Virus record (IMG/VR): IMGVR_UViG_3300037043_000339
Span: 1-36,778 of that record
Strand: one strand, 5' to 3'
DNA length: 36,778 nucleotides
From: a virus
Lineage: Duplodnaviria > Caudoviricetes
Below, piece after piece: positions 440 through 27,175 of the stretch. The translations under genes were made by a program, and so were the position numbers. Each line of letters starts with the position of its first letter. Within the stretch, counting starts at the first letter, position 1. The notes below the pieces were generated by a model that saw nothing but the letters and a program-made list of their open reading frames with translations, was not told the origin of the DNA and did no database searches.

Positions 440-490
440 ACAATGAGACAATTAGACGCAATCCTAACAATACTTTATTAAACTTAGTAC

Positions 491-519
491 TTGACATGAC
501 CACCATCAGCGATTATATT
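491..519 (+). promoter_or_regulatory. Promoter P1 (TTGACA-17 bp-TATATT) with conserved spacer CACCATCAGC
   Basis: TTGACA at 491-496, TATATT at 514-519, 17-bp spacer. The spacer core is shared with P2 and P3. Confidence 0.8.
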
Positions 520-535
520 CCCCCTTAGCGTTACA

Positions 536-603
536 AAACATTCATTATTCAACCGAAAAGGGAACTTTACTTCCAAAAAAAGGGAAGTAAAGTTCCCTTT
601 TTT
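536..603 (+). promoter_or_regulatory. Leader element E1: AAACAT-N9-AACCGAAAAGGG box plus terminator-like hairpin
   Basis: Perfect 19-bp inverted repeat 556-574/583-601 with T-run 598-603, lying between P1 and ATG 619. Confidence 0.8.
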
Positions 604-618
604 GTTTACGAGGCCTTT

Positions 619-1128
619 ATGTGGTCATTTCTTGCATCCGCAGCAGCTCCATACCTACTTGATGTCATCACCGGTACATCCAAAAAGCAGAAGAAAGCCA
701 CCGACGCATACCAGTCCGGCGTCGACAGCACAATCGGAAACCTGAAAAAAGAGATGGGCAACAGTGCTGCCGATAGCACCATGTTCAAAACGGCAGAAAA
801 CGAAGTGGGGGTTGAATCAAAACGAGCAATAGATATGCTCACCCAGAATGCAGCCGCTTCCGGTATGTCTGACGAAGCCAAACTTGGCGGGATGGCGCAG
901 ATCAACGAGGGATCCAATAATACGCTCATCAGCGCCTTGGATTCCGCGGACCAACAGAGAAGGCAGATCCAACAGCAGGTCGACAATTTGTTGCTCTCAA
1001 AACTTGGCTTCCAGGTTCAGCAAGCGAATAATCAGGGCAATGCAATGGCCAGTGTATCATCGAACCTGAGCGCAATCCTGCCTTTCCTATTCCGGAAGAA
1101 ACCAACGCCGGTCGGTGAAACACCATGA
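619..1128 (+). CDS. Putative DNA ejection / internal virion protein (P22 gp7-like role)
   Basis: Hydrophobic Ala-rich N-terminus, Q/A/S-rich helical body and hydrophobic C-terminal patch. GAGG RBS. First gene of a coupled operon ending in the giant protein. Confidence 0.55.
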   Translation: MWSFLASAAAPYLLDVITGTSKKQKKATDAYQSGVDSTIGNLKKEMGNSAADSTMFKTAENEVGVESKRAIDMLTQNAAASGMSDEAKLGGMAQINEGSNNTLISALDSADQQRRQIQQQVDNLLLSKLGFQVQQANNQGNAMASVSSNLSAILPFLFRKKPTPVGETP

Positions 1129-1445
1129 AAGTAAAGGAAATTAAAAATTCAGACGCATCACACTTCGGCTGGGCAATAAAATGTCCGGGTTGTAGTGACT
1201 ATCATATTTTTGATAAAAGATGGACATTCAACGGCGACGTGAATAGTCCGACGTTTCGCGCAAGTATGTTGGCGACGGTAGATTGGCCGCAACACCATCC
1301 CGAAACAGGGAAACCAAAAAGTATCTGTCATAGTTTTGTCACCGACGGGAAAATACAGTTTCTGTCCGATTGCACTCATTCAATGAAAAATCAGACAGTT
1401 GATCTTCCGGATATAGATCCGCAATGGAACGAGGAAATCCAATGA
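1125..1445 (+). CDS. Small Cys/His metal-binding protein, DUF6527-like
   Basis: Motifs CPGC..H, WTFNGD..SPTF..S and CHSFVTDGKIQFLSDCTH. ATGA overlaps at both ends. Confidence 0.7.
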   Translation: MKVKEIKNSDASHFGWAIKCPGCSDYHIFDKRWTFNGDVNSPTFRASMLATVDWPQHHPETGKPKSICHSFVTDGKIQFLSDCTHSMKNQTVDLPDIDPQWNEEIQ

Positions 1446-2473
1446 ACGCAAATATATTTACACCGTCACACACCATCAGTAATACATTCCTTTCCGAAGA
1501 AGAAGACAATCCCTTGAAGAAATTCAAGGATGTGCTTTTAAGCAGGATTCTAACAGCGCAGCGTCAGGCACCGATCGACACGAGCAATGAATCGCTCAAG
1601 AACCTGGGGATTCTCGATAAGGTTGAATTGAAGAAGCAAAAGGACACGAATCAGGCTAATCGGGAAGAAGAACTGCAGGACGCAGCAATCGGATCAGGGC
1701 TTGGAATCGTGGCTGGATCTCTCGCCAATCTGCTTTCCGGGAATACGAACGCCGAAGGATTGATGAATAACGCTCTTCCCGGCATCTCTGCGGTCCAGAC
1801 GCTATTGGGTGTCCAGGGTCAGGAAGAACAAATCGACAGGAAGAACTACGGCGAAGGTGTCAACAAGTTCTATTCGACGCTGTTCAACATCAATCGTTCG
1901 AATGAAGCCACCAAATCAAAGAATCTGGAATTGGATATCAGTACGCTGAAAGCATTGAAAGACTCCAATGATTTCAGTGAGGCCGACGTTTTCGCCGACG
2001 AGAATGATCTTGCCTACACGAAGAAGACCAACAAAGATACCGGCGAAATATCGATCGAGCCGGTAATGGTCAACGGAACGCATATCAAACTACGCCGGCC
2101 GCCTTCAATGGATTCTCTGGATTATCGGCGTACCGCCGATATTCAAGGCGATATCGACAAGATGGAGAAGGAATATCGGGAGAACAATAAACTGATCGGT
2201 CAGTTGGCGGATAAAGATAAATCCGCGGAAGCATTGAATGCATACATCGAAATGTTGGCAAAATCGAATCCTGGTATGGCAGCTCTGCTGGCAAAGGCTA
2301 CTCCGGAGAGTGTCATTGCTCAGCTGGAAAACAGTCAAATTGACCTTGAAAAGAAGATCAATGAACTCAAGCCAAAGATCGGCCAGGATCAGTTCGAGGG
2401 GCATTACACCAAAAAGAAGTCTTCCAAGATCAATCTCAAGTCTGATAAACGCGAACTTCCCAAGGCAAAGTAA
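1442..2473 (+). CDS. Putative second DNA ejection / internal virion protein
   Basis: The start is probably ATG 1442 (ATGA overlap, GAGGA upstream) rather than 1424. Gly/Ala hydrophobic patch (AAIGSGLGIVAGSLANLL), coiled coils and a basic tail. TAATG-coupled to the giant ORF. Confidence 0.5.
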   Translation: MNANIFTPSHTISNTFLSEEEDNPLKKFKDVLLSRILTAQRQAPIDTSNESLKNLGILDKVELKKQKDTNQANREEELQDAAIGSGLGIVAGSLANLLSGNTNAEGLMNNALPGISAVQTLLGVQGQEEQIDRKNYGEGVNKFYSTLFNINRSNEATKSKNLELDISTLKALKDSNDFSEADVFADENDLAYTKKTNKDTGEISIEPVMVNGTHIKLRRPPSMDSLDYRRTADIQGDIDKMEKEYRENNKLIGQLADKDKSAEALNAYIEMLAKSNPGMAALLAKATPESVIAQLENSQIDLEKKINELKPKIGQDQFEGHYTKKKSSKINLKSDKRELPKAK

Positions 2474-5400
2474 TGGGTAAAGAAAAAGTCTTTAATCCTT
2501 CACGTCGGTCGTTATACGACCAGATGAAGGATCACTACAATCTTCCTGAATACGATAAATTCGAATCTTACCTCGATGATGACAATAACCGTAAGGCATT
2601 GTTCGATGATCTCTCGGGACAATCGCTACTTGGCGATGTGAAGGATTTCGACGAATTCGAATCACTCATCAAACCCCGTGTTTCTCCTGAACTCCGCTCA
2701 GAATTCATTTCCCAAAGTGCTGCCGAATTCAAGAAAGACATTGCTTCCGGACCGTCTCCTTTCGAGCCCGATAAGACTCAGTATCAATCACCCATTAAGC
2801 AGGAAGCAGCTGCCAGGGAAACTCAAGGATCTCCTGTGCTGCAGCAGGCAATGCTTGATACCGCGCTCATGGAATCCGGTATGTTGCCGCAGGTTCAATC
2901 GGAAATCAACAAAGAAATTCAGGATCAGGAAGCCGCCGACAAATTGCTGAATACCTTCCGTGAAGCAAAAATCCGGACTCTTATCGAGGAAGTCGAAGAT
3001 CTGTCTTCCAGACAGGATATCAAAGGTAACAAGGAAGCCGAATCCTACGTGCAGAGCGTCAACGATGAACTTGCCGCCTATACCCCGGAGGAAGTTGAAT
3101 CTGTTCGAAAGAAAATGGTAGTTGAACGCTCCCAATCTTACGCAAAGAAACGGATCAACGAACTGAATGCACAAAAGGGGAAGTCTGTCTGGACCGCAAT
3201 TCAAGACGGCGATTTCGGAGATCCAAACCGTCTGTTTACCGGCCGTCTGAAGGAAAAGTCAGACCTCATAAAATCACAACGGATGCATCTGGACGAAAAG
3301 AATCTCCTGCAAGAAGCAGTCGACGCTCCGAATAAAAGTCAGGGAAAATGGAATGATTTTGTAAAGGGCATCGGATCGGCAATTGGCATTGATCTTGTCC
3401 CATTTGTCGGCGATGCTGTAGAACTGGAGAAATTTTCACGAATAAAGGAATTGACCGATAAAAAACAGGATGAGCGTACCGAAGACGAGCAGGCGGTCGT
3501 CGATGCATACGCTGCACTTCAGAACGTCAAAAACAATTCAGAGTTAACGCCGATATTTTACAACATCGGTAAAGGTGCGACCGAGATGACGCCATATGCT
3601 CTGGAATTCGCTGCAACTTCGGGAGTGTATTCGACGGCAAAAAACGTCATGCAGCACGGTATAATCAAATTGATTGGCCGTGAAACAATCAAAGAAGTTT
3701 TGGAAAATGCCGCAAAGAAGAATGTTATCGGTCTTGTTAATAAAGCGACGCTGAAAGGCGTTGCATCACTCGGCGCCGGTATAACTCAGTCCCTGGCCAA
3801 TCCTCTGGGTATCGCAGTGGATTTTGAACAACGCGGAATTCCTTTACTGTCACTTGGGATGTCGAAGGAAGGGGAGATCGTCGAACGGAACGCGATCGGG
3901 AGTCCGGATGAATCGATTACAAAACTGCTGAAATCAATCGGTGTGAACGCAGCGGAATACGTTTCTGAGCGATTCGGATATGCTGTGGAAAAGCCCACTG
4001 AGATGCTCGCCAAAATGGCGATTGGTAAATTCTTAGCCAAATACGGACAGAATGCCACTGAAAAACAACTTGAAGCGATCGCGAAAAAACTTGGCTGGAA
4101 TGGTATTATCGCAGAATTCGCAGAAGAATTCCTGAATAAACCGATGCAAACTGCAATTGAAAGCGGGAAGATCGAATTCATGTCTCCGGAGGAGTCTCTG
4201 GAGACGCTTGGCATTGTTGCTGTGCCCGGTCTTGGCGGTAAGGCAGTAAAGTACAGCGCAAAGGCATTCAACGCACTCGGATCACTGCCGAAGTTAGATC
4301 CATCGGAATTGAAAAATGACAAACCTCAAAGCGGTGAAGAATCTAAAGAACAAACTGTTGAGCATGGAAACCCGGAACCTGGTGGATCTGCTGACAATAC
4401 TCCGACTGGAGATGAAATTAATCCACCGCAAAAATCTGAACCGCTTCAACCTGCAGCAGCTCCGGAACCTGAAAAGAAAGTACAACTGAAGCCCGACGAA
4501 CGAGCTGAATTCATCTATCCGAATCTACTTGAACAACTCAATCAGGAAAGTGAAGATGCGCCAATTTCAGTCTCTTCCGTGATCAGCATGGTCCCGGAAC
4601 TTCAGTCGGGAGACCGGAAAAGCAATGTCAAAACTGCCTCAAAACTCATTCAGCGATTACATCAGGAGGGTTTGGCAGTTGATAATGTTTTCAAGAAAAA
4701 GAAGGAAGATCCTGAGCAGGAATGGAAGGATAAAGCCGCCGAATTGGGTATTTCTTTTGTGGGGATGCAATCGGTTCCCGGGAAAGATTCCATTCCTCTT
4801 TTCACCGATCCTGAAACCGGATCGACATTCGTGAAGGCAGATGGTGAAACGCTTCAGCAGGCACTTGATCGGAAACGTGAACAATTCAAGCAGTCAAAAC
4901 CTGTGACACCGGAAAACAGCGAAACACCGGAAGCTGTAGTTCCTCCTGTGGTTCCAACTGACAAAGATGCGGACATAAAGCCGGATGGATCTGTCGTTGT
5001 CAAAGGCGATGATGAAGGACTATTCCCCGGGGAGAAATTAACATTAAAACCGTTTGTTCGTCCTGAATTGCCGTTCAAGAATATCGATGTCAATTCGCCT
5101 GAAAAGATTTTGGATTACAATGCCCGAATTCAGGATATCTTGTCGGCCCGATACAAAGGATACAATGATGTATTGGATAACCGAATCAAGGAACTTGATT
5201 CCGAGATTGCAAAATCCGTGAACGGATCTGCGCTGAGTAAAGCCCTGGAACACGAACAGATTAAATTGAAAATTGAGAAGGAGAATTGGGAAAAACAGTA
5301 CGGCGATCTGATTGAAGAACGGTTTGTGGAACATCGTGAATCCATTCTCGATGAAGCCACAAAGCGTGGTATTGTATTTATCGACGAATCGGAAGAAAAC

Positions 5401-8400
5401 GAATTTGTTGATGACTTCCTTCTGCAAATCGGCGACGACAATGCTACCGCAGAAAAAAATGGTGAGAAAGCCATTAAGGATGTTTTTGATTCAATTGTCC
5501 AAAAATACCTACCTAAAGACGAGGAAGAACCGGTAATTCCGCCCGTCGAGACAAAACCGCAGGAACCTGAAACGAAAGAGCCCTCCGGTGAGACGAAGAG
5601 CGGGAAAAAAGAAACGATTCCACCCGCCGACATAGCGCAGGTGAGTGAGGATATTCTGGATAAGACATGGGTAAAACGACGATCTGAAGGTCAGTATGTC
5701 CAGGATAACAATACATTCACTCGTCAAGAACCTTTGAGCGAGTCTGCCGGCAAGGTAGCATTTGGGAAAAATACCTCCGTTGTATTTGCAAAAGAAGTGA
5801 TTGCTCCTGCCCGGTATGCTGTGATCGATGTATCACTTCTTCAGCCATCACACATTTCCGGCAGCCCGAACAAACTGCACTTCATACCTGAAGCCCAGCC
5901 CAAAAACCGCAGTCAAAGCGAATCAAACCGGAATCAGAATCAGGAAATGGCCGAGAACTTGGATCCCGAGCAGATCCTCGTGGGGAAGACGGCATATGTC
6001 GGCGCTCCTACTGTTAATGATCGGGGTGAGATTATTCAGGGTAACGGTCGGGGAGGGACCGCAAGAATTTATTGGAACCAATATCCGGATGATCCGAAAG
6101 GTCTGAAATCAACGATTAAAGAATACGCTTCGGTTTTTGGACTGGATGAAAAACAGATCGATGCAATCAAGCATCCTGTCGTCGTTCGTATGTTTACTGG
6201 AAACGATAATCAGGCAATCACTCTCGGTCAGTACGAGGTAAGTGATCTGGAATCCGTTGCCAACAAGACAACCAAAGCGACGGCTATGAGCCGGAAAATG
6301 TCTGATGAAGACGTTCAGAAAATCGCTGAAATGATCCAAAAGGCAGACAGTGGTGAATTCGATAAACCGATCGGAGAGATAATTCAAAACGCTGGTCTCC
6401 CGATTGTCGATACGTTGATCTCCGGGGGGGCGATCAATGCCGACAAAAGGGAGACCTATTTTTCCCGTGATGGCCGGATTTCTCCTGATGGGGTGGAATC
6501 AATCAAGAACATCCTTGTCAATTTCCTCTTCCGCGGGGGAAACACCAATGTTCCGGAACTCTTCCGGAAGACGCCGGCAAACTTCCAGAATGCGATTGAA
6601 CGGAGCATTCATTTCCTTTTGTCTTCCAAAGCGCCTATCAATACCGAGATCCAGAACGCAATTATGATGTACGATGGATTTATCAAATCCGGTATGGGCA
6701 GCATCCTTGATTTCGTCAGGCAACCAGGTCTTACCGAAGCCGCGCCGATAGACAAATATGGCGTTGATTCTGCTACAATCGCATTGATGATCGAACAACC
6801 GCAGCGTGAACTCATTGCAAAATTCAAACGATATTTCTTGAATTCAAACGGTACGCCCGGGGACATGTTCTCCGAAGGCAATCCGGCGATGTCCAAACGG
6901 GATTCTTATACAGCATTCGATCCTTTCTTCACTCAGGCAAAGCAGTACGGTCTGCCGGAAGACAACAATAAATTCTTCGGATCTGAGGATGTGGATGTTT
7001 CTGTATTTGAGCCCAAGTCATCCTATAAAGCGATGAAAGCGAAGTATCCTGGAACGGTCTTCTTAATCCGCAAGGGAGAGAATTATATAGCACGTGGACA
7101 GGATGCGATCGATATCAAAAATGCATTGGGGATGAAACCATCAAAGGCAAACACCTATGAAATACCGGCGAGTGCGATTCAACAAATTCTTCCGAGATTA
7201 TCCAAAGCAGGATTACGTGTCGGCGTTGCTGATCAGATTGAGGAATCAGACTCACAGATAGAATTAGGTTTTGATTCTCCGGAGACAAAGTCCTTCACAA
7301 CTACCGATGGTGAATCGATTCGATATCAAAACGCTTCCGGTGAAGCAAGGTACAAACGCTCCCCTGGAAACCGCTTGGCGGAATCACCTTCAACAAGAAA
7401 ACTTGATAAAAATGAGCATCAAGTAATAAGTCGATTATATCGAAAATCTCCATTCAAATTCTTTGGCGCGAACGAAAGAATTAATGGTCCAAAAGACGTC
7501 GCGGTTCTTTTCCGTCAATTGGAAACAGAATCCGTAGAACACTGTTTTGCAGTGCATGTTCGGGAAGACGGTAAGACTGTCATTCAACATCTCTCGACAG
7601 GATTATTTAACTCTACCCTCGTTTCACAAGTACAATTCCAAGACCTCATTGAGCGGTTCGGAACGAAGGAACTGTATTTTGTCCATAACCATCCGTCCGG
7701 CAATCTTGAACCGTCCCGCGAAGATCTTGGCATTCACACACAAATAGAAAAAAGTCTGGGCGGAAAAGTTATCCTTCACGATAGCATTATTATTAATCTT
7801 AAGAGCGGAAAGTATTCGACATTCAGTCCGAACTTTGGCCAAAACGCAAAAACCAAAGACTCAACACAAGGGATTGAAGGAAAGATTCCTTTTAAGACTT
7901 TATCGTTTACACGACAAGCATTGCTTAAAGATGTTGAACTAACAAAAGTATCACAACCCGAATCTATCGCAGCATTTATAACATCCTCTCGGTTCTCTTC
8001 CGGTAAAAAATGGCAATTACTTTCAATGAATCCTCAGAATCAAATTATAGGAAGATTCTGTTTAACTTCAATCCCGAATTTCAACTCAGAAGAAAGCATA
8101 AAGAATGTTGTTAACGAGGCTTCATTATTTACCATACGCAGTGGGGGAATATCTTGCGCATTAGTAGCAAATATCGGTGATGCACCCAAATTGGCTGAAA
8201 ACGGTACATTCAATCATCTAAGAAAATCACTCGAAGAAAAGGGGATAAATTTATTAGACATTGTTGGAGTTGAACCTTCTTCAGACATATTTGAATCAAG
8301 TTTAGACAACGGGGCGCAGGATGTTATTAAGCCCGGGGCCAAAACAAACATCAACACCTTAAGTGAACCTTCTTCCGAATATGCTTCTGCATCTTTTAAT

Positions 8401-11400
8401 GAGAAAGCATATAACGGTCTTTATAAAATCAACGGTTTTTACATTGAAAAGGGAGTGAAGGCGCCATCGGTACTGGCTCGGCTTGCTGTATTGAAAATAG
8501 GCGGTAACATCATAAAGTATCCGGCCGAATTCAAAAAATCCGTCATCGATGCACTCGGATTCTTTGCCGAATCACCTTCAGCGGAATTCATCGGCGCTTC
8601 AGAACAACAAATCCGCTCAATGCTTGAAAACGCAATAACGGAGAATAAAAATGGACAAACCGAAAACGAAATCATCGGCCAGTACATCCGGACTGTTAGA
8701 TCGAATGCCTCTGGATCCGGAAATACCAATGCTGGAACAGATGGAGGAACTGGCTCAAACAGACGACCAAGCCTTAGAGTGGTTGACGAAGGAAATATAC
8801 CACAACCAACGGAGATTATCCCTGTTGACAGATTCTCCATCAGCGAACACCAACGCCTCGCCGTCAACCTTGCGTTAACGCGATTTTTAGAGAAAAAGAA
8901 AAAAGCATTCCTTCTGGCCGATGGAACAGGCGCCGGGAAAACTCGATCGGAAATCGTCATAGCTTATGAATTGGCAAAAAGGATGAAAAAACCTGCTTTG
9001 ATCACGACGTACGATGATACCGTGATCGAAGGATTCCGGCGTGAAGCGCAGGCATTGGGCATTGACCTGGAAGCATCCAATATCGAGATTGGAACCTACT
9101 ACAATCTTGCTGCAGGCAAAAAAGCCGGAAGCAAGGGGGGCGCGGACTACGCACGACGAGACTACAGCGTCCATATACTTGACGAAGCACACAGGATCAA
9201 AAATGTTGATTCGATCCGTGCTCAGATGTCGAGTGCAGTAAAAAGTGATCATCTTGTCTATGCAACCGCTACACCAATGGATAAACCGCTGCACAGCGCG
9301 TATTTCATGGCTGAGGTGATTGAACAATCCCCGGAAGATGTCGCCAAACAACTCGGTTTTGAAATTGTAAAAACTCCAATGCCTGACGGCAAGATGGAGA
9401 CTTCGGTTATTCCGTTGAACAATATGACGTGGCTTGTCGTATTGGACAATTTGCTGAAAATGAGGGATCAGGCAATTGCCGATGGAGCGATGATCCGCCG
9501 TGAATATCCGTTCTATGGAACGGTCAACAAGAAATTGATTCAGTTTTCACAAGAGCAACGTGACGAACTTGACCAGATTGAACGGTTCTGGAATGGATTT
9601 ATCACAGCAGCTCAAGCGCGAATTCAACCGATGATCGACGCCCTTCAGTATCGGTTCGATCGCGGAGAGATTAATCCTGCAAAATTCTTCAAGGAACTCC
9701 AGATAATCCGCGCATCCAAGAACTTCAAGAAAAATCCGCTGCAGAAATCGATGATGGAAGCGGAGTTCGGTCTATTGCGTGAGTTGTCTTATTGGACCGA
9801 AATGCAGAAACTCCAGATCGTGTTTGATGATGTCATACAGGCATTGGATGAAGGAAAGCGCGTCATCGTTTATGCACAATCGGTGAATCCCGGGACGCTT
9901 GAAGCAATCGACCAGGATCCTTCCAAAGAAAGTTCAATCGCCTATGGCGGATTCCTGAAGACATTAGGTGAAATGCTTTCGGCTAAGAATATCGATTTTG
10001 CGAGAATTTACGGCAGCGACAGCGACAAGGTAACAGAGGCCGACCGGTTTCAGAGGGGGACTTTCAAAGTTGCACTGGCGACAATGGAATCCGGTGGAGT
10101 GGGTATCAACCTGGACGATACATCCGGTGATGCCCCGAGAAAGATGTTTATTGTTACGGCGAACTATGCAGGCGATGCGACTGATCAGGCGATGGGAAGA
10201 GTTTCAAGGATGAACACAAAATCCGCATCGGAAGTGACCTTCTATTTCGCCCCGGAAGCAAAATCCGACCGTCGACGTGGAGTTATTCTCGGAAAGAAGA
10301 TGAATACACTGCGCCGAATACAATCCGGAGAGGATCCCGATCGAGCAACATTCGATGTGCCGATGCCGGCCGAAAGAGGTTCATTGTTCGATCCTGTTCC
10401 GAAATCGGAAGGAGTATGGATTGAACCATACCTTGACGGCTTTGTCATCGTCAAAGGAAACACTGCGAGCGTCAAAGGCGCTCTGAAGAAAATCGGCGGT
10501 GGCCGATACAACGGTACGCTCAAAGGGTGGATATTTCAAAAATCAAAACGGAAAGCACTTGAAAGCGAACTATCCAATGTCCTATCAAAACCATCCGATA
10601 CCGGCTCGGTCGTCAAAGAACCGGCAGCGGATTACCAGGGTGATTTGTTCCGGAAGAATCCTCAAATAGATCTATTCTCGAGTGAAGAAGAGACCTATAA
10701 CGCCGATAAAATTCCCGATACTCTCTCGTCTCGCACAGGTGCTGAGGCAGAATCTGAACAGGAAATCCTTGAATTTGAACATGGTCAGGATGGTATTGTC
10801 GATTCGCAGGATGTCGAAAATGAAATTCCCGGACCGCCAATGGATGAAAACCAAGAGGTCATCGAGGAATCTGAAATCACCGATTTTGGCGAAGTCATTG
10901 GTGATGCGCGGAAACATAAGGCAACGAAAGGAATATCCAGACGAGTTCAAAAAGATGACCGGCCCGGATGGATGAAGAAATATGTCGTTCTTGAAAACAA
11001 AAAGAACGGTCTGTGGGGTGTGTATATTTTGCTTGGCAAGCATGGTCAGGTAAAGAGTGTTACCGGAGATAAGTTCTCGTCTCAAAAAGAAGCGGAATTT
11101 GTATTACCGCTTGTTGAGGTATCGCTCAAGCATCGTGTTTACACAGAATCCAGATCGGATGAAAAACAATCATACGGTATCTTCCGGAAAATCGGTGACC
11201 GCCGTCTGGCATTGGTAAAAGGTGGATTTGCTTCCAGTGAAGAAGCCACTAAACACATGGTGACCAATGCCATGGATATTATCAATTTCCGTTTTCCTTT
11301 CCCGGAGCGGCCGTACCTTGAGAATATCGTCCGCGTCGGTCCCACACGTCTTAAAGGCAACGTCACTCCGAAAATGTTTCAGGATGTATTCGGTTTCCGC

Positions 11401-18618: not shown

Positions 18619-19242
18619 GTGGCTAAGACCAAAGAAAAACCGGCTGAAAGTCCGAATATTACTTCAATGTATGAGGAAATAAAAAAAGAATCGCAGGAAC
18701 TCATTGAAGATATGTCATCGGATTCATTTTCCGATCGTGAACGGCTATTTGTGGCATACTACCTGAAATTTCTGGATAAAACAAAAGCGGCTATCGAATC
18801 AGGATATTCAATAAAATCGGCAAATGTTACCGGACATCAGATCTATAACCGTTCACACGTCAAAGCGACAATCAAAAAGTTTTTGGAACGTACGATCGGT
18901 GATGCCTACGAAACCAGGGCGAAGATTGCAAAGTTCACAAATGCATCGCTTGAATACTTCGTTAAAATAAACCGTGAAGACGGTACGTACGAACTTGACC
19001 TACCCAAGGCTCTTGATTCCGGCATGTTTGCGACTCTCAAAAAACTCAAACCCACTAAAGAAGGGGTTGAAATCGAATTGCATAATCCTCTTGAAGCGCT
19101 CAAAATGGAGGGGCAGGCACACGGTATATTCCTTGAAAAAGTGGAGATCACTCCTACCACGCAGGATGATCCCTTTACTTTAATGGCGAAAGCTCATCAT
19201 GCACAACTTGCCAAGAAGAAAAGCCGCAAAAAAAAGAAGTGA
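18619..19242 (+). CDS. terS: Terminase small subunit
   Basis: HTH pattern SDRERLFVAYYL..TKAAIESGYS.KSA...G. Lies directly upstream of terL. The GTG start abuts the stop of the giant ORF. Confidence 0.85.
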   Translation: MAKTKEKPAESPNITSMYEEIKKESQELIEDMSSDSFSDRERLFVAYYLKFLDKTKAAIESGYSIKSANVTGHQIYNRSHVKATIKKFLERTIGDAYETRAKIAKFTNASLEYFVKINREDGTYELDLPKALDSGMFATLKKLKPTKEGVEIELHNPLEALKMEGQAHGIFLEKVEITPTTQDDPFTLMAKAHHAQLAKKKSRKKKK

Positions 19243-19248
19243 TAGATT

Positions 19249-21312
19249 ATGCGTCCTGCGGTTCAATCCGTCATATCGCAGAATTCCAAACGATGGAATA
19301 CTCTTCTTCAACCCTATGATCCGATACTTGGCATAGGATCCCCAAAGCCACGCTTACAAATAAAAATTGATGATCAGTCCACTGTATCTATTCCCGTAGA
19401 GATGGGGCAACATGCTGCTGTTGAGTTTATTCAAAAAAGCGGATCAATGGAAAAAGCAGCTGCGGCCGTCGGAAAAACCATTGAAGAAGTACGGAACAAT
19501 TTCGCCAGAGTGCGCTGTAAATATGATTTTGAGTTTTGGGCTGCGTCGTGTGTTACAATTAAGGCAAAGCGACCAAAAAAAGATGCCTTAGTCGATGGCA
19601 CCGAGGGTGATACTGGCATTGATAAGATGACGGTAAAAAAGAAGTTCGTTCTAAACCGGCCGCAACGGAAGATGCTGGCAGTTCTTGAACGGATGAGGCT
19701 TTCGGGCGTTTCTATTCGGGTTATTCTTCTGAAAGCGCGGCAATGGGGAGGATCTACACTTGTGCAAATCTACATTTCTTGGTTGCAATTGTTTCACCGA
19801 ACGGATTGGAATGCTATGATCGTTGCCGATGCAAAGGAAAAGGCATTGAATATTCGCTCGATGTATAAACTGGTCGTTCAAGATCATCCAGCTGATGTGA
19901 TCGAGGGCGTTACCGGTAAATTACAGATGATGCCTTGGGAACAGACACATAATTTCAAATATATTCCCGGCCGCGGTAATCTCATCGGTGTAGCGTCAGT
20001 TCAAAATCCGGATGCACCTCGATCGTTTACGACACACCTGCTGCACTTATCAGAAGTCGGTCTATGGAAATCAACACCTTCGGTCAACGCGGAATCACTT
20101 GCTACTTCTTTGGAAGGGGGTATTGTCGACGGACCGTATACACTGTGTGTTATGGAATCAACGGCGAAAGGTGTCGGTACGTATTTCCACCGGGAATGGC
20201 AAAAAGCAATCAATAAAAAATCGAATTATGAACCGGTATTCGTCTCATGGTTTGAAGATCCGAATGATTATAACGTACCGGTCAAAAGAGCTGCGGAATT
20301 CATTGTTACCTGGAGTGATTACGAATGGTTCTTGTGGGAAAGCGGCGCGACGATTGAACATATTGCATGGTACAGGAAAAAGAGAGTAAACTTCGATTCT
20401 GACTGGCAGATGCAAAGTGAATATCCGACAAATCCTCAAGAAGCATTTCAATCTACCGGAAACCGAATATTTGCTCCGAATATTGTCATTGAAGCGAGAA
20501 AGACCTGCAAAGATCCGATTGCAGTTGGAAATCTCAATGCCGATACGATTAAAGGACCGGGCGCATTCAAAAACATTGAATTTGTTCCTGCAGCGAACGG
20601 TTACCTTTCCATATGGAATTATCCTAATAATTTTGGAATTGAACGCTCCGGAAAATTATATACGAATCGTTACTGTGCTTTTCTGGATACCGGTGGTAAG
20701 TCAAAGGAATCAGACTATAACTCTATGTCTGTGCTGGATCGCATTCTGACGATGTACGGAGGAGTTCCGTATGTAGCGGCTGAATTCCATGGTCACTTCG
20801 ATCCTGATCTGGTGGCCTGGTATGCAGCAAGAATTGCACGATGGTATGATAATGCATTATTGGCAGTTGAAGTCAACAAATTATACCAGGATAGCGGAGA
20901 CGATACTCGCGGTCATGAAGCCAATTACGGTGTTACGGTATTGGACGAAATAAAAGATTATTACGAAAATCTGTATTACCGGATTCAACCTGAGCAGATC
21001 CAAGAGAAGTGGAACGGTGTTTTAGGTTTTCATACGAACAAAGAGACCAAACCTATGATCATCAAAGAATTGAACGCAGCGTTGCGCGACCATGGGTATG
21101 AGGAGCGTAATATTGCCGCCTGTGATGAATTCGATTATTATGAACAGAAAAAAGACGGTTCTATGGGTGCTGTGGAAGGGCAGCATGACGATCGTGTGAT
21201 ATCGAGAGCCGGAGCGCTTTGGCTTTCAGGGAAAATGGATCCGGTGGAGGAGATAGACATACAACGGAAATCCGGAACTGCAAAGCCCGGGGGGTTTGGG
21301 ATATTTCCGTAA
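19249..21312 (+). CDS. terL: Terminase large subunit
   Basis: LKARQWGGST (Walker A), LLHLSEVG (Walker B), ESTAKG coupling motif, and RNase H-like FLDTGG ... HDDRV. Confidence 0.95.
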   Translation: MRPAVQSVISQNSKRWNTLLQPYDPILGIGSPKPRLQIKIDDQSTVSIPVEMGQHAAVEFIQKSGSMEKAAAAVGKTIEEVRNNFARVRCKYDFEFWAASCVTIKAKRPKKDALVDGTEGDTGIDKMTVKKKFVLNRPQRKMLAVLERMRLSGVSIRVILLKARQWGGSTLVQIYISWLQLFHRTDWNAMIVADAKEKALNIRSMYKLVVQDHPADVIEGVTGKLQMMPWEQTHNFKYIPGRGNLIGVASVQNPDAPRSFTTHLLHLSEVGLWKSTPSVNAESLATSLEGGIVDGPYTLCVMESTAKGVGTYFHREWQKAINKKSNYEPVFVSWFEDPNDYNVPVKRAAEFIVTWSDYEWFLWESGATIEHIAWYRKKRVNFDSDWQMQSEYPTNPQEAFQSTGNRIFAPNIVIEARKTCKDPIAVGNLNADTIKGPGAFKNIEFVPAANGYLSIWNYPNNFGIERSGKLYTNRYCAFLDTGGKSKESDYNSMSVLDRILTMYGGVPYVAAEFHGHFDPDLVAWYAARIARWYDNALLAVEVNKLYQDSGDDTRGHEANYGVTVLDEIKDYYENLYYRIQPEQIQEKWNGVLGFHTNKETKPMIIKELNAALRDHGYEERNIAACDEFDYYEQKKDGSMGAVEGQHDDRVISRAGALWLSGKMDPVEEIDIQRKSGTAKPGGFGIFP

Positions 21313-21320
21313 AATTGTTG

Positions 21321-21359
21321 AAGATTTTTCTTGACTTGAACACCATCGGCTATTATAAT
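21321..21359 (+). promoter_or_regulatory. Promoter P2 (TTGACT-17 bp-TATAAT) with conserved spacer CACCATCGGC
   Basis: TTGACT at 21331-21336, TATAAT at 21354-21359. 21321-21355 matches 24651-24685 at 34 of 35 nt. Confidence 0.85.
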
Positions 21360-21370
21360 CACAACACCTT

Positions 21371-21490
21371 ATGAAGCGAATAATTGAAAATATCTTCTAT
21401 CGAACGATCGAGCAACGGGCATTTTCCGGATCGACGCCGTTTCATATATTCCAGCAGAACTTACTGAAAGCGTTGTGGTATGGCAAATAA
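21371..21490 (+). CDS. Possible 39-aa near-leaderless peptide (MKRIIENIFYRTIEQRAFSGSTPFHIFQQNLLKALWYGK)
   Basis: The ATG is about 5 nt after the predicted P2 start site, and the ORF overlaps the next start codon. It is below the ORF-track size cut-off and has no recognisable family. Confidence 0.3.
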   Translation: MKRIIENIFYRTIEQRAFSGSTPFHIFQQNLLKALWYGK

Positions 21491-21677
21491 TGAAATAGAC
21501 ATACCACGGTTAACGCAAATTGAGGCGACAAAGCTGATAAAGGCTTTAGCCAGAACCAAAAACGTTGCGGAAAAAACTGGTGAAGATCAACTGGTCATTA
21601 TTCGCTTTAATCCACGACATAAAATGTGGTCAACCATGTTTTCAGAATCTCACCAATGGGTGAAAGTTTTGACATAG
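21480..21677 (+). CDS. Small hypothetical protein (65 aa), candidate regulator
   Basis: Fills the gap between P2 and element E2. Helix plus beta-hairpin-like pattern. No strong RBS. Confidence 0.6.
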   Translation: MANNEIDIPRLTQIEATKLIKALARTKNVAEKTGEDQLVIIRFNPRHKMWSTMFSESHQWVKVLT

Positions 21678-21694
21678 AATAACGAAATTGTTGT

Positions 21695-21753
21695 AAACAT
21701 TTTTTAACTAACCGAAAAGGGCGTAGTCATTCAATATGACGAACGCCCTTTTT
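21695..21753 (+). promoter_or_regulatory. Leader element E2: AAACAT-N9-AACCGAAAAGGG box plus terminator-like hairpin
   Basis: AAAAGGGCGT (21715-24) pairs with ACGCCCTTTT (21743-52). Upper stem GTCAT/ATGAC. T-rich tail. Confidence 0.8.
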
Positions 21754-21785
21754 ATTTTTGCACTACTTTTTGAGGAGATACAATT

Positions 21786-22295
21786 ATGAGATCCATTCTT
21801 TCTTTCGGACAAAAACTGGTTTTTGTTCTTGTCACGGCCTTGATGTTGGTGCCGGTCATCAATCAAGATGCAATCGCGCAGGATGTATACAAGCCGCTTC
21901 CGGCCAACGTTTTTCCTTCCGGTCCGGAATCATTTACCGGTGTGCAATACGTGAACAGTCAGGTTTACCGATCGCCAATTATCGACGCCTGGAATTTTGA
22001 TTCCCTTCAATACTTGCTTCATTTTACCGATTCGGTGAACATCTCCTCGATCAAAATTATTCGATATGCGTACAGTACCGCCACTGTCGGAGACACTTCG
22101 TCAACACTCGGGACAGTAGTAAGTACCAATAGCGGAGGTAAGACAGTCGTCATTGTCGGCATTGACAGTGTGTTCACCAATAAGAATGCGGCAGCCGGAT
22201 ATCAGCGTCTCTTGATAACGTTTAATTCAAGCGGCAATCCATCGGGCGGTAATATCGGTAAGAAGTTTTGGCCATACATGCACGGATATAAGTGA
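21786..22295 (+). CDS. Exported protein with Sec signal peptide, function unknown
   Basis: GAGGAG RBS. Signal-like MRSILSFGQKLVFVLVTALMLVPVINQDAIA|QD, followed by a beta-rich Ser/Thr-rich mature region. Confidence 0.75.
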   Translation: MRSILSFGQKLVFVLVTALMLVPVINQDAIAQDVYKPLPANVFPSGPESFTGVQYVNSQVYRSPIIDAWNFDSLQYLLHFTDSVNISSIKIIRYAYSTATVGDTSSTLGTVVSTNSGGKTVVIVGIDSVFTNKNAAAGYQRLLITFNSSGNPSGGNIGKKFWPYMHGYK

Positions 22296-22314
22296 CTTTA
22301 ACGCTGAAATTATC

Positions 22315-24228
22315 ATGACCGAACAAAAATCGACATCGTTCATAAATTCTCAAGGGTTCGTGGTGCGGAATCAGCGCCTCGAACTCCTTGAGGAGGCACG
22401 TATTGCCTGGGACGGACTACGTGACTATCGGACCCGCAGAGCTCGAAGCCGCGATTACATGCGTGGTAAACCCAAAGAAACGATGATCGATCCCGATACA
22501 AAAGAAACCGTCAGCGAAGATGAATATATCGTAGCGCAAGGACGGATCCCATTCAAGGTTAACCGCATCAGCCCCGTCATCCGCAACCTAAAAGGACAAT
22601 TCAGGCAGTCAAAAACTTCCCGCATGGCATACGGCGTAAATCGCGATGATACCGATGCTTCGGACATGATGACTGAAGGCCTGAATATGGCCTGCAGAGT
22701 TAATCAAACACAGGAAACCGATGCTGACGCCGTTGAGGAATCGTTCATTGGCGGGATGTATGGCTGGAAAACGGGATACAAATGGAATCCGAAACTCAAA
22801 AGGGAAGAAATTTCGGTTGATCTGGTCGACGGAACTCGCCTTTTTTACAATCAGGATATCTCTGATCGGCGATTGACAGGATTAAGAATTATCGGAGAGA
22901 TACACGACGTACCGTTGAATGAAGTTATCATGCGCTTTGCAAAAAGCAAGGCGGATGAGAAGTTCATCCGGGATATGTACGCGGAAGTTCAGCAAGCAGC
23001 ATTGTATCCGTACGAATATATGCAATACGGATTCAATCTGAAGGATAGTCTGGATTTCTATACGACTCCGAATTGGAATCTTGCACGCGTGATCGAGGTC
23101 TGGAAACTTGAATACAAGTGGCGGACATTTGTCCATGATCCAATGACCGGATCGTACGATGAATTGGATGTGACGCAGCAGCAAATAGATCTCGTCAATC
23201 AACAGCGTGAACTTGAGGCGCTTGTATTGCAGCAGGAACCGCCAAAACCTATCACCATTAAGCAGCAGTTTGATGCGGTCTGGCGATGCTATTTTATGAA
23301 TCCCCTCGGATATATTCTTCATGAATCAGATACACCTTACTGGCACGAATCCCACCCCTATACACTCGGCCTTGCTCAATTTATCGACGGTGAAGTGTGG
23401 GGACTGGTTGAAGATATCATTGATCAACAGCGTCTTTCAAACCGATTGGTAAGTGCGATCGACAATATGTTCGGATCCAGCGCAAAGGGCGTTTTGCTTA
23501 TTCCCGAAGATTCGATTCCAGCCGGCATGAAGCCTGCGGATTTTGCGTCGGAGTGGACGAAATTCAACGGCGTTATTGCTTACAAGGCAAAGCATGGGAC
23601 TCCACCACCGGAACAGGTATCAATGAATTCCATTCCCACCGGTATTTTCAACTGGCTCACGATGATCTCCGGCGAGATGAAAGAAGTATCAGGCGTTACC
23701 GGTGCACAAATGGGATTGGAACCTCAAAGCGGAACTCCCGCGATGATGTACGACGCGCAAATATCACAAGGTCAGTTAACGACGAGGGATTTTTTTGATA
23801 GTTTTTCTGAAGCACGGCGTCAACGTGATCTGATGATCGTGAAATTAATCGCGCAGTATTACGATGAACCGAAAATGCTGGCAGTATCAGGACGTCGACC
23901 GGATGGACAAAAATTGATCAAATATGATCCTGCCCGTGTTCGTCAATTGGATTTTGATATTGTCATCAGCGATACACCGGACACTCCGGCGAACCGGCAA
24001 TTGATGGAGACCTATCTTGTGGATCTGATGAATAACAATCGTTTGACGTTCCGGCAGTATTTGCAGCTCTCCAGTCATCCGAAGGCAGATTTGATACTTC
24101 GAGTGATTGAAAGCTCAAATCCACTGCTGGCAAATCATCAAATGTCGCCGCAGGATGTTGCAGCATTGCAATTGCAGGCTCAAGCCGGAAATCCCGATGC
24201 CGTGGCCTTTATGAATCAAGCAGCATAA
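22315..24228 (+). CDS. Portal protein (P22-like podoviral type)
   Basis: 637 aa, after terL. Motifs GRIPFKVNRISPVIRNLKGQFRQ, GLVEDIIDQQRLSNR, SAKGVLL, EVSGVTGAQMG, and a Gln-rich tail. Confidence 0.9.
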   Translation: MTEQKSTSFINSQGFVVRNQRLELLEEARIAWDGLRDYRTRRARSRDYMRGKPKETMIDPDTKETVSEDEYIVAQGRIPFKVNRISPVIRNLKGQFRQSKTSRMAYGVNRDDTDASDMMTEGLNMACRVNQTQETDADAVEESFIGGMYGWKTGYKWNPKLKREEISVDLVDGTRLFYNQDISDRRLTGLRIIGEIHDVPLNEVIMRFAKSKADEKFIRDMYAEVQQAALYPYEYMQYGFNLKDSLDFYTTPNWNLARVIEVWKLEYKWRTFVHDPMTGSYDELDVTQQQIDLVNQQRELEALVLQQEPPKPITIKQQFDAVWRCYFMNPLGYILHESDTPYWHESHPYTLGLAQFIDGEVWGLVEDIIDQQRLSNRLVSAIDNMFGSSAKGVLLIPEDSIPAGMKPADFASEWTKFNGVIAYKAKHGTPPPEQVSMNSIPTGIFNWLTMISGEMKEVSGVTGAQMGLEPQSGTPAMMYDAQISQGQLTTRDFFDSFSEARRQRDLMIVKLIAQYYDEPKMLAVSGRRPDGQKLIKYDPARVRQLDFDIVISDTPDTPANRQLMETYLVDLMNNNRLTFRQYLQLSSHPKADLILRVIESSNPLLANHQMSPQDVAALQLQAQAGNPDAVAFMNQAA

Positions 24229-24249
24229 TACATTTATCTGGAGGATATC

Positions 24250-24639
24250 ATGTTCGAGGGAATTACGTTAAAAGATGCCGGCCGTAAGCCTGAATCACCC
24301 GAAGCTTATAAAACCGCAGCAATAGGATCCGAAGAAAATCCAAAAATGATTTATCCGCGATTATGGACAGATACAAAGGAAACACCGGTTGACATCAAAC
24401 GATTCAAGGCGGGGGACAAATTGTATTTTGTCGCAGAGGTAAATGTCTCCGAGATATCGAACGTCGATCGAGACGGGGTGGAGGAACCCGAAGCGACACG
24501 CTTCGAGTTGGAATTTCTTAAAGTCGGCATAAAACCGTTTGAATCAAAAGAAAAGCCAAAAGATGACGATGGCTTCCTGGAAGATGCAGATCAGGTTCTT
24601 GCCGACACGGTGAAACCCCCCGAGGATAGAATATTTTAA
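24250..24639 (+). CDS. Hypothetical acidic protein (head region)
   Basis: GGAGG RBS, 129 aa, between portal and scaffold. Confidence 0.7.
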   Translation: MFEGITLKDAGRKPESPEAYKTAAIGSEENPKMIYPRLWTDTKETPVDIKRFKAGDKLYFVAEVNVSEISNVDRDGVEEPEATRFELEFLKVGIKPFESKEKPKDDDGFLEDADQVLADTVKPPEDRIF

Positions 24640-24650
24640 GATGGTGTGAT

Positions 24651-24689
24651 AAGATTTTTCTTGACTTGCACACCATCGGCTATTAGCAT
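24651..24689 (+). promoter_or_regulatory. Promoter P3 (TTGACT-17 bp-TAGCAT) with conserved spacer CACCATCGGC
   Basis: TTGACT at 24661-24666, TAGCAT at 24684-24689. Near-identical to P2. Confidence 0.8.
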
Positions 24690-24697
24690 TGGACTAC

Positions 24698-24715
24698 TTA
24701 ATTAACCGATAAGGG
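24698..24715 (+). promoter_or_regulatory. Partial element E4 (TTAATTAACCGATAAGGG), no hairpin
   Basis: AACCGATAAGGG at 24704-24715 matches the E1-E3 box at 11 of 12 nt. No complementary CCCTT follows before ATG 24738. Confidence 0.55.
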
Positions 24716-24737
24716 AACAATTTCACAGGAGTATGTA

Positions 24738-25811
24738 ATGACAACGCCGTTGGATGAAAGATTAATCGACCAAACCACACTTGGCGAAAGTGGCGCCGGC
24801 AGCGACGATTTTGACAACGAATTATCTCAATTCGGAAAACCGCCCGAATCCGCGCAAGGACAAAAAACGCCGGAACAAATTCAGGCCGAAAAAGACGAAG
24901 CAGCGAAAAAGGCCGCCGCTGAAAATAAAGGCGGAGAACAGACCGAAGAAGAAAAGGCCGCAGCTGCTGCAGCTACTGCCGCAGCAGAGGCAGAGAAAAA
25001 GCGTCTTGAGGACGAGAAGAATAATGCCGTGAAACCAACGGAAGTGCCGGAATCGATTAAGAAGCATTTTCCGGATGCAAAAACGATCGACGAGGTCGCG
25101 GTTTTGGTTGACACGAAATTCGCTGATTTGAAGCGACTGGAAGATGAATTGAAGTCGGCCAATGAGTCGAATGAAGAAATGGTGAAGATTCTTGCATCGG
25201 ATCCGGCATTAACGGAAATGATGAAGGATATTCGCGCAGGAGTTCCATCGTTTGAAGCAATTCGGAAATACTTTGAATTGGCGGAAGGTGAAACCGTTCC
25301 CGATCCGCAAAAGGATCCGGAGAAGTTCAAGGATTACACCAAAAGGCAACTTGAACGTCAGGCGCGTATGGATCGCCAGAAACAGAAAAATGCAGACGCT
25401 GACGCAATCAGCAAGAAGATGGAAGATCGCGCCGTTGCTCTCTCGAAATCGTTTCGTGAAAAAACGAAAATGGATGATCAGACGTTCGAGAAATTCACCG
25501 GCTATATTAAGTCGATCATCCAGGGAGATCCGCAAAACGGTATTCCCGACAATTTCTTCGATTCGCTTTACAATGCGTATGCCTTTAACGACCTGATGAA
25601 ACAAAAGGAAGACGCTTTGAAGGCGGAATATGAAAAGAAGATCATCGAAGAGCGTAATCGAATCATCGAGAATGTAAAACTGGGAAAGCCGATTGGTGAC
25701 GGACTGCCGAATTTCCAATCGACGAAACCGAATCAGCAAGTTCTTGTTGATGAGTTTACGGATCTGGAATCGGCAATGACTTCGGAAGATCGGGTACCGA
25801 TTCCACAATAA
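24738..25811 (+). CDS. Putative capsid scaffolding protein
   Basis: AGGAG RBS. Highly charged coiled-coil protein with an acidic disordered N-terminus, directly upstream of the capsid gene. Confidence 0.75.
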   Translation: MTTPLDERLIDQTTLGESGAGSDDFDNELSQFGKPPESAQGQKTPEQIQAEKDEAAKKAAAENKGGEQTEEEKAAAAAATAAAEAEKKRLEDEKNNAVKPTEVPESIKKHFPDAKTIDEVAVLVDTKFADLKRLEDELKSANESNEEMVKILASDPALTEMMKDIRAGVPSFEAIRKYFELAEGETVPDPQKDPEKFKDYTKRQLERQARMDRQKQKNADADAISKKMEDRAVALSKSFREKTKMDDQTFEKFTGYIKSIIQGDPQNGIPDNFFDSLYNAYAFNDLMKQKEDALKAEYEKKIIEERNRIIENVKLGKPIGDGLPNFQSTKPNQQVLVDEFTDLESAMTSEDRVPIPQ

Positions 25812-25828
25812 GAAGTCCAGTTCGTAGC

Positions 25829-25892
25829 AAACATATTTTAATCAACCGAAAAGGGTAACTGAGCCAGAAATGGCCTGTTACCCTTTTTTTTT
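25829..25892 (+). promoter_or_regulatory. Leader element E3: AAACAT-N9-AACCGAAAAGGG box plus terminator-like hairpin
   Basis: AAAAGGGTAAC (25849-59) pairs with GTTACCCTTTT (25877-87). Upper stem GCCA-GAAA-TGGC. T9 tract at 25884-25892. Confidence 0.85.
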
Positions 25893-25917
25893 CAACATAA
25901 CGCGAAAGGATACAACA

Positions 25918-27117
25918 ATGAGTGATCCAGTAACCACACTCAGTCAGCAGAACCTGCCCGAACAGCATAAGGTTCGTGACGTATCGACGATCCTTTCTAA
26001 ACTCGAGCCTGACTTGTATCCTTTGGATACAATTCTTCGCCGAATGAAGAAAGGTCCCGCGGCCACCCAAACGAAAATTGAGTGGGCGCGAACGGTTTCG
26101 CTTCCTCGCACGGATACGATTGCCGCGGATTCAGCAGCGGGATCGGCTGGTGCGGCGAAGGTCATTACCGTAACAACCCCGAACATGTGGCGAATCGATG
26201 ATATCATCATCACGCCCGGTTCAGTCACAAATCCTCCGCTTCTTGTGACAGCAGTGAACTACACCAACGGACAGGTGACGGTGTATGCACTTGACCAGAA
26301 ATCCACAGTGAACGTGACAGGCTACGGCACCGTTCCGGCATTGACCACAGGTGATGTGATCGCCTGGCTCGGTAACTCAAAGGCTGAAGGATTCACGCAA
26401 TCCTACAGCCGGGCACAGTTCCCGACCTACGATTATAATTACTGCGAATTGTCGGATACGATCGTGGACGTGACGCTCACCCGTAAGAACACCAAGAACT
26501 ATACGGAAGATGACTGGAAACGCGCACGGCGCGAACAGCTCAAAGAATTCCGTCGATCGCTGGAGTATAAGCGATGGTTTGGTATCCGGTCGGAAGTGAA
26601 AGACCCGACAGATCCGACGAAGGATCGTTGGACAATGCACGGTATTACCCGGTTCTTGTCGAAGAAATTCAATTACGATAAGGATGCAACCGGGACAAAA
26701 ATTACCGAAGCAATGCTCATCGATTGGCTGGCGTCTGCCTTCGGCGGGAATAACGGCAGTCCTTCGCGGTTCCTATTTGCCGATACCTGGCTTATGGCCG
26801 AATTGGCAAAATGCGGACTGACCAACCGGCGTAACCTGAAGAATGAGGTTGTTCTCGGGATTAAGGTGGGGATGGTTCAAACCGATTTCGGCACTCTTTT
26901 CCTGAAGCATCATCGCGGATTCAACGAGATGGGCAAAGAGCATTACGGCGTCATCGTCGATATGGCTCAGGTCTATAATCGTGAATTGCGGCCGATGGAG
27001 CGGAAAGAATTGAAGCTGCAGGATATCGGAACGGACAAAGATGCTGAGCAGTACAAGGAACAGGCATCGCAGGAAGTCCGCAATCCGGAATGTCACGCTG
27101 TCATCGAAGGTGATTAG
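25918..27117 (+). CDS. Major capsid protein (HK97 fold, SU10-MCP/DUF5309-like)
   Basis: The start is re-assigned to ATG 25918 (AAGGA RBS). Motifs RDVS..L..L.P..YP..T, KIEW, YNYCE, EFRRSLEY..WFG, TDFGTL..H. Located after the scaffold. Confidence 0.85.
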   Translation: MSDPVTTLSQQNLPEQHKVRDVSTILSKLEPDLYPLDTILRRMKKGPAATQTKIEWARTVSLPRTDTIAADSAAGSAGAAKVITVTTPNMWRIDDIIITPGSVTNPPLLVTAVNYTNGQVTVYALDQKSTVNVTGYGTVPALTTGDVIAWLGNSKAEGFTQSYSRAQFPTYDYNYCELSDTIVDVTLTRKNTKNYTEDDWKRARREQLKEFRRSLEYKRWFGIRSEVKDPTDPTKDRWTMHGITRFLSKKFNYDKDATGTKITEAMLIDWLASAFGGNNGSPSRFLFADTWLMAELAKCGLTNRRNLKNEVVLGIKVGMVQTDFGTLFLKHHRGFNEMGKEHYGVIVDMAQVYNRELRPMERKELKLQDIGTDKDAEQYKEQASQEVRNPECHAVIEGD

Positions 27118-27123
27118 CAGTAC

Positions 27124-27175
27124 AGGTGAATCCCTCTCTCCTTTAATAAGGGGGAGGGGGATACCTATGTTTTTT
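27124..27175 (+). terminator. Intrinsic terminator after the major capsid gene
   Basis: TCCCTCTCTCCTT-taat-AAGGGGGAGGGGGA stem (with G-U pairs), flanked by AGGT/ACCT and followed by TGTTTTTT. Confidence 0.65.

Follow-up and report, generated by a model that had tools for sequence, protein, structure and literature searches.

A conserved box at the base of terminator-like leader hairpins in the structural module of a narrow clade of tailed phages

The virus record IMGVR_UViG_3300037043_000339 (Duplodnaviria; Caudoviricetes), 36,778 bp long and analysed whole as the window, holds the structural module of a tailed phage, with all its genes on the + strand and the non-structural part of the genome absent. 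Three of its gene blocks are preceded by copies of one leader element, here E1, E2 and E3, in which a short conserved box adjoins the base of a terminator-like hairpin. We conclude that this is a real, selected and previously undescribed cis-element of a narrow phage clade, with an architecture of a known kind. From its sequences, positions, pairing potential and conservation in relatives we infer a mechanism to which we give an even chance: late promoters would run into leader terminators, and a phage factor, likely acting on the single-stranded box, would allow passage.

Box, hairpin and promoter in the window

The motif AAACAT-N9-AACCGAAAAGGG has exact copies at 536-562, 21695-21721 and 25829-25855, all on the + strand, against 0.09 expected by chance; three copies were reached in 0/100 shuffles, and the window holds no further copy at up to 3 mismatches. 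These are the three copies from which an initial annotation had described the element, and their positions are exact. It had also described the spacer as 9 AT-rich nucleotides (nt); the length holds in E1-E3, but the spacer is constrained, containing TTAWYY. What it missed was a fourth box, E4, and three promoters, P1 to P3. The TTAWYYAACCGAWAAGGG part of the motif recurs exactly once more, at 24698-24715, where AAACAT, hairpin and T-run are all missing, and a matrix built from E1-E3 alone scores this site at 23.4 bits, the next-best site reaching 10.7. The elements and promoters are as follows (G003 and G006 are relatives described below).

490..519, + strand: promoter P1, sigma70-type TTGACA-17-TATATT, 11/12 consensus, predicted start ~526
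536..541, + strand: AAACAT of E1, exact motif match
545..562, + strand: box of E1, TTATTC-AACCGAAAA-GGG, 18-nt core match
560..603, + strand: terminator-like hairpin of E1 and T6 (hairpin 560-597, 15 perfect pairs)
21330..21359, + strand: promoter P2, sigma70-type TTGACT-17-TATAAT, orthologues in G003 and G006
21695..21721, + strand: AAACAT (21695-21700) and box (21704-21721) of E2
21719..21759, + strand: terminator-like hairpin of E2 (21719-21748) and T-run
24660..24689, + strand: promoter P3, sigma70-type TTGACT-17-TAGCAT, orthologue in G003
24698..24715, + strand: box of E4, TTAATT-AACCGATAA-GGG, 18-nt core match, before the scaffold-like gene
25829..25855, + strand: AAACAT (25829-25834) and box (25838-25855) of E3
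25853..25892, + strand: terminator-like hairpin of E3 (25853-25883) and T9
27130..27162, + strand: strong hairpin after the capsid gene, without a box

The hairpins of E1-E3 are terminator-like, as had been proposed, each with a GGG...CCC stem followed by a T-run and with folding energies of -24.1 (E1), -15.7 (E2) and -16.7 (E3) kcal/mol. Each inner stem does pair with its own partner: shuffled inner stems matched the observed energy in 0/2000, 1/2000 and 0/2000 cases for E1, E2 and E3, arms swapped between copies folded at just -2.8 to -11.7, and the whole-leader folding z-scores were -6.35, -3.64 and -3.66. The differences between the inner stems had been taken as covariation, which they are not; the stems are unlike in sequence and length, so that pairing is specific to each copy and no formal covariation exists among these paralogues. 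True compensatory change appears only against an orthologue, described below. As initially reported, the copies end 15-32 nt before the first gene of a structural block, the gap to the start codon being 15 nt for E1, 32 nt for E2 (26 nt when counted from where the full T-run stops) and 25 nt for E3.

P1, P2 and P3 form one repeat family of sigma70-type promoters in which the spacer between -35 and -10 is unusually conserved, and this spacer probably serves as a site for an operator or an activator. The family is also represented at 2909 and 6420 of locus L038 and at 8441 of locus L042. Outside the structural module, a 64.5-kb relative carries more of these promoters, and a short contig of run X6 has the family as well. 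Across the four boxes the nearest -10 lies 14, 31, 350 and 1154 nt away. The presence of sigma70-type promoters upstream makes leader termination plausible. P1 lies just 31 nt upstream of the E1 box with no open reading frame (ORF) in between: a promoter aimed straight into a -24 kcal/mol hairpin and T6 would need read-through to be of use.

Conservation and distribution of the element

Searching viral sequences by DNA pattern alone for the box followed by a terminator gave 13 loci, among them the 7.5-kb fragment G003, a syntenic relative with identities of 61% for terL, 48% for an ORF of 65 amino acids (aa), 62% for a 169-aa protein and 69% for the portal. The initial annotation had expected the box in related phages, and G003 keeps box and terminator. 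Its orthologue of E2 (position 3436) stands before the orthologous gene with a changed stem sequence: the outer six pairs read G-C, G-C, G-C, C-G, G-C, U-A in the window and G-C, G-C, G-C, U-G, A-U, C-G in G003, which amounts to two double and one single compensatory change. The 5' flank had been thought conserved in both sequence and spacing. This is so within E1-E3, where AACAT lies 9 nt from AACCG, but the distance is 12 nt in the G003 E2, and AACAT is absent from both E4 copies. The invariant part is therefore AACCGAWAA, present in 6/6 copies of the window and G003. The G003 counterpart of E4 occupies the corresponding position and retains the core AACCGATAA, after which comes a second TTAACCG instead of GGG. 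This G003 copy (L038 6467-6490) reads TTAA-N7-TTAA, with a small hairpin and no U-tract after it; this arrangement is the shape of a CtrA site, probably by chance. G003 retains P2 and P3, both of the promoters within its span, and a promoter-pattern scan recovered G003 once more and nothing else.

Closer relatives are found in Logan contigs, where E1 is kept in 4 runs (3 studies) and P1 is kept with two spacer changes. The similarity begins at 470-476, at the promoter, and continues through box and stem; the DNA before 470 is not kept. The 64.5-kb relative has 15 differences in 470-698. Among the 10 of these 15 that are listed, two fall in the promoter spacer (500, 502), two in the leader (529, 533), one in the loop (575) and the rest in coding sequence, and none falls in the E1 box or stem. 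The same relative has 484 differences over 21645-24835 against 7 over 25818-26050, a span that covers E3 (40 of 701 differences listed).

Beyond these the element is missing. In G006, with a major capsid protein (MCP) of 41% identity, AACCGAWAA occurs 0 times in 31.6 kb and MCP follows a gap of 39 nt. G006 carries weaker promoter copies at the P1 and P2 positions without box or terminator there, from which we conclude that these promoters predate the box. In L005 (MCP 51%) the gap before MCP is just 20 nt and the element is absent, and AACCGAWAA does not occur in 9.6 kb of G007 (portal 53%). On this comparison of sequences, distant relatives (MCP 41-51%) lack the box where their sequence covers the site, and the element is clade-specific.

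Wider searches agreed with the earlier remark that the motif was not recognisable as one of a described family. Rfam 15 gave 2 matches to the window at E<=5, with 22.2 of 68 and 18 of 40 bits, and hence no family, leaders of the ribonucleic antiterminator (RAT) type and gut-2 included; on the 13 box-plus-terminator loci none of its 3 matches at E<=0.5 came up to the gathering score. A covariance model, which the initial annotation had suggested as a check, was run over 24 sources (201680 bases) and returned its 4 training copies and then only loci already selected by pattern (E ~0.001-0.8) and L048 (E 0.33). The 18-nt core matched 14 IMG/VR loci, once each, with a GGG...CCC-T-run hairpin after none. 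The exact full motif matched 3 loci there (two of the same sequence), again with a hairpin after none, and these are taken as chance. A widespread motif was rejected: AAAAGGG-N18-48-CCCTTTT occurs in ~12000 viral stretches (an estimate from 1/64 parts), with AACCG before it at 13 loci. That is ~5e-4 per oriented end, below 1/1024, and 0/238 ends in a 120-locus sample had it, so that the box is not enriched before such hairpins across viruses. Among the 13 loci, one is a shown relative; seven come from 5 records, mostly fragments, of which 0/5 had an MCP or terL match; and the remaining five are one other sequence family. A structured, GC-rich sequence that closes with a terminator-like hairpin is common to the viral loci L022, L023, L026, L027 and L032, and no Rfam family matches it at the gathering score. 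Among the papers listed by full-text searches, which covered main texts and mostly journals outside subscription, none showed the motif in a phage regulatory role.

Gene blocks and a candidate late switch

The genes around the elements are these.

619..21312, + strand: block 1, with ORFs 619, 1125 and 1424, a 5381-aa polyvalent protein, terS and terL
block 1, + strand: ORF 1125, DUF6527-like, score under the cut-off
2473-18618, + strand: 5381-aa polyvalent protein, by family matches
18619-19242, + strand: terS, block 1
19249-21312, + strand: terL, block 1
21371..21677, + strand: two small ORFs from P2 to E2, of 39 aa (21371-21490, read by eye) and 65 aa (21480-21677)
21786..24639, + strand: block 2, with the 169-aa protein, the portal and ORF 24250-24639
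start 21786, + strand: 169-aa protein, first gene of block 2, hydrophobic N-terminus
22315-24228, + strand: P22-like portal, family match
24250-24639, + strand: last ORF of block 2, from the ORF list
24738..25811, + strand: 357-aa ORF, scaffold-like by position alone, no family match
25918..27117, + strand: MCP, first gene of block 3, SU10_MCP family

The overall order is P1-E1-block 1; P2-small ORFs-E2-block 2; and P3-E4-scaffold-like gene-E3-capsid with the genes downstream. The 5381-aa protein matches ddrB-ParB (ParB-like), LPD14, MutS-I, RadC-like JAB, SNF2, LPD1, LPD23 and PBECR2; its C-terminal 1100 aa match no family, yet have 33% identity in L041. ORF 170-439, upstream of P1, has no family match, and a second strong box-less hairpin (30391-30418) lies inside ORF 30258. 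An in-frame ATG within the E3 hairpin (25870-25917), taken as the start in the database gene call P0001, would give a capsid ORF of 415 aa; the start at 25918 is favoured by a ribosome site and by homologues, which are ~395-405 aa long. The interval from terL to E2 (21313-21690) behaves like a cargo site: the window has the 39-aa ORF there, for which G003 has no room, whereas G003 has an additional ORF of 85 aa whose N-terminus is twin-arginine-like. In the 64.5-kb relative, 1137 nt are inserted before P2 and the sequence after P2 differs. Records of the exact 65-aa protein exist for 5 contigs; the longest, of 105,961 bp, may represent a longer genome or a prophage in its context. Five runs each contain at least half of the record's words; all are groundwater metagenomes, 3/5 of them marked as a possible source. 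The nearest named relatives are 7 Bacteroidales loci with a portal identity of merely 32-35%.

We propose that P1, P2 and P3 are late promoters. Without a factor, their transcripts would stop at E1 after ~75 nt, at E2 past the small cargo ORFs and at E3 past the scaffold-like gene. Late in infection, the AACCGAWAA(GGG) box at the terminator base would likely serve as its single-stranded RNA binding site; a bound factor would mask the A-run and GGG, the three bottom G-C pairs would be unable to form, the residual stem would then lie away from the U-tract, and termination would fail. The hairpin-less E4 might be a loading site, a translational-control site or a relic, and the gene for the factor most probably lies among the non-structural genes, outside the window.

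Several observations fit such a switch. The box adjoins the stem in identical register in 4/4 terminator-bearing copies, although the inner stems, 29-38 nt long, are unrelated. This fixed register, the keeping of P1 with E1 and the greater age of the promoter family carry the most weight and fit a switch that blocks the terminator base; the promoters of G006 look like the family's late promoters, with box and terminator added in the window's clade. Forcing the 12-nt box to be single-stranded weakens the leader energies from -33.1, -23.0, -23.2 and -31.5 to -16.9, -9.3, -11.1 and -13.9, and also parts the stem from the U-tract. The W of AACCGAWAA is A in 4/4 copies facing a U-tract and T in 2/2 copies without one. 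An RNA site tolerates a shift in spacing better than a promoter does, so the change of the AACAT spacing from 9 to 12 nt between orthologues favours an RNA site. The initial annotation had cited RAT overlapping the terminator arm as a precedent. The box does overlap the arm, but the folding gives no RAT-like alternative hairpin: before the 3' arm is complete, the best alternative fold reaches -2.8 to -3.8 kcal/mol and differs between copies. With no competing hairpin, this is not a RAT- or riboswitch-like fold; the agent would more likely be a protein bound to unpaired RNA, or else a complementary RNA.

The following weigh against the switch. The element's carriers are just one independent orthologue (G003) and near-identical strains. 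The strong hairpin at 27130-27162, after the capsid gene, has no box. E4 is a box without terminator in both the window and G003, where GGG is absent as well; the earlier idea that box binding blocks hairpin closure does not account for E4. P2 and P3 may be kept merely for expression of the cargo and scaffold-like genes, the AACCGAWAA core resembles a sigma28-type -10 element, and no alternative hairpin stronger than -3.8 kcal/mol exists, unlike in RAT systems. Finally, a family scan of 26 protein stretches of the window matched no antiterminator family, and genes for Q, NusG, sigma or RNA polymerase were not found in this 36.8-kb structural fragment. The 65-aa ORF is not supported as the factor: it has no family and no usable Atlas match, a homologue search found only itself, it is less conserved than its neighbours (48% against 61-69% in G003), and its likeness to a similarly placed ORF of L041 is not significant (E 0.44).

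The resemblance to a sigma28 element leads to promoter readings of the box, which in their two versions together are the less expected outcome, though one to be reckoned with; unexplained phage-specific promoter motifs are common, according to sections of PMC10914365, which supports keeping such readings. In the first, itself fairly unlikely, the box is a DNA promoter for a phage or host alternative sigma and AACCGAWAA a single -10-like element. Transcription would start 6-9 nt downstream within the 5' arm, leaving the late transcript unable to form the terminator, and the hairpin would merely insulate the genes from upstream sigma70 transcription. A transcript beginning 7 nt after AWAA does lose the terminator in 4/4 copies, and E4 is explained directly. 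The core agrees with the sigma28 -10 element GCCGATAA, as given in part of PMC12784957, at 7/8 (E4 copies) or 6/8 positions; the single-element sigma promoters of phiEco32 start 6-8 bp downstream, in passages of PMC8948821; and T4 late promoters are sited so that an inhibitory hairpin, translational in that case, cannot form, in passages of PMC2988022. However, this version leaves P1 purposeless despite its conservation, does not require the fixed box-to-stem register, finds no consistent -35 across the six copies, and has no sigma gene within the window's structural part.

In the second version, which we consider very improbable, the box is the promoter of a single-subunit T7-like phage RNA polymerase starting at GGG, with the hairpin as a 5'-terminal stabilising stem and also a terminator for the host polymerase. 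The box geometry fits the T7-family promoter layout in 5/6 copies: TA at -14/-13, a 5-bp core at -9 to -5, A/T at -4 to -1 and GGG at +1. T7 late promoters stand before scaffold and capsid genes, and the boxes likewise precede the scaffold-like and capsid genes. The exception is the G003 E4, which lacks both TA and GGG. Moreover, the transcript would hold the entire hairpin and U-tract, and neither the 5381-aa protein nor the other window proteins have an RNA polymerase motif or family match.

Alternatively, the terminators could be constitutively leaky, setting stoichiometry or closing cargo cassettes, with the box as a separate site. On DNA it might act as an operator or roadblock; otherwise it might take part in translation or processing, or seed short leader RNAs. 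We judge this quite unlikely. The arrangement P2-small ORFs-E2 does resemble a cargo cassette, given the extra ORF in G003 and the 1137-nt insertion in the 64.5-kb relative; the tandem TTAACCG in the G003 E4 is of the kind preferred by repeat-binding proteins; and terminated late leaders can act as functional small RNAs, as described in portions of PMC7547250. Nevertheless, a strong fixed terminator right before the capsid gene would presumably cut the most-needed product, and the fixed overlap with the stem base is left unexplained.

Returning to the switch, a bolder form of it is conceivable, though we doubt that it holds: a phage protein of a new family would disable each late-leader terminator through an unstructured 9-12 nt RNA box, and E4 would add translational control, making a single RNA regulon that couples head, portal and ejection-protein synthesis. 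In any form of the switch, an unstructured box repeated at several leader terminators would time the virion genes unlike a single promoter with Q, a phage sigma or a phage polymerase, and at ~60 nt the element would be compact enough to serve as an inducible part. Antitermination and the promoter reading would each bring a new recognition specificity, an RNA-binding antiterminator or a promoter class escaping its own terminator, with a reach limited by a distribution confined to one clade.

Comparison with known systems

In Q systems the promoter spacer can hold a factor-binding site, and the conserved spacer of P1-P3 could do likewise. Lambdoid PR'-tR' shares with P1-E1, at the level of sequence, a sigma70-type late promoter terminated in its leader (sections of PMC7547250). 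The lambdoid switch has a single late promoter with a sigma pause close to it. Here, in contrast, promoter and terminator are paired three times, the terminators have a box in common that can be as far as 1154 nt from the promoter, and the window has no Q-family match. In the BglG/SacY/LicT-RAT systems too, a conserved site extends into the 5' arm of the leader terminator, as in 4/4 terminator-bearing copies here, but in the available parts of PMC5393181 and PMC3105407 RAT is itself a hairpin, whereas our leaders have no alternative hairpin below -3.8 kcal/mol and no Rfam match. In addition, no CAT-domain protein was matched among the 26 window protein stretches. HutP of Bacillus subtilis is an earlier example of a protein destabilising a terminator by binding single-stranded RNA motifs within it; according to sections of PMC12591593, however, HutP reads NAG-triplet clusters flanking a linker, in one host operon, unlike one 9-12 nt box repeated in a phage.

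Among promoters, the late sigma promoters of phiEco32 and 7-11 share a short oriented motif before late blocks and a similar capsid family, SU10_MCP. The box sequence is unlike both phage consensi, though, and the word 'terminator' occurs 0 times in the available text of PMC8948821. The box core resembles the sigma28 -10 element GCCGATAA at 6-7/8 positions (part of PMC12784957). It has no -35 at a consistent distance, unlike sigma28 promoters. Lambda N/nut, made of boxA and a stable boxB hairpin, lets a phage factor act at an RNA site on transcripts that have to pass terminators. The idea of an RNA site is the same, and the CC-GAAAA-GG core is superficially like the boxB loop, whereas here the stem has 2 bp only and is lost in the G003 E4, there is no boxA, and the site overlaps the terminator. 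Of these systems, the element falls outside both lambdoid PR'-tR' and RAT-type antitermination on the features tested, and by this analysis would work most like the former spread over three units, or like the latter.

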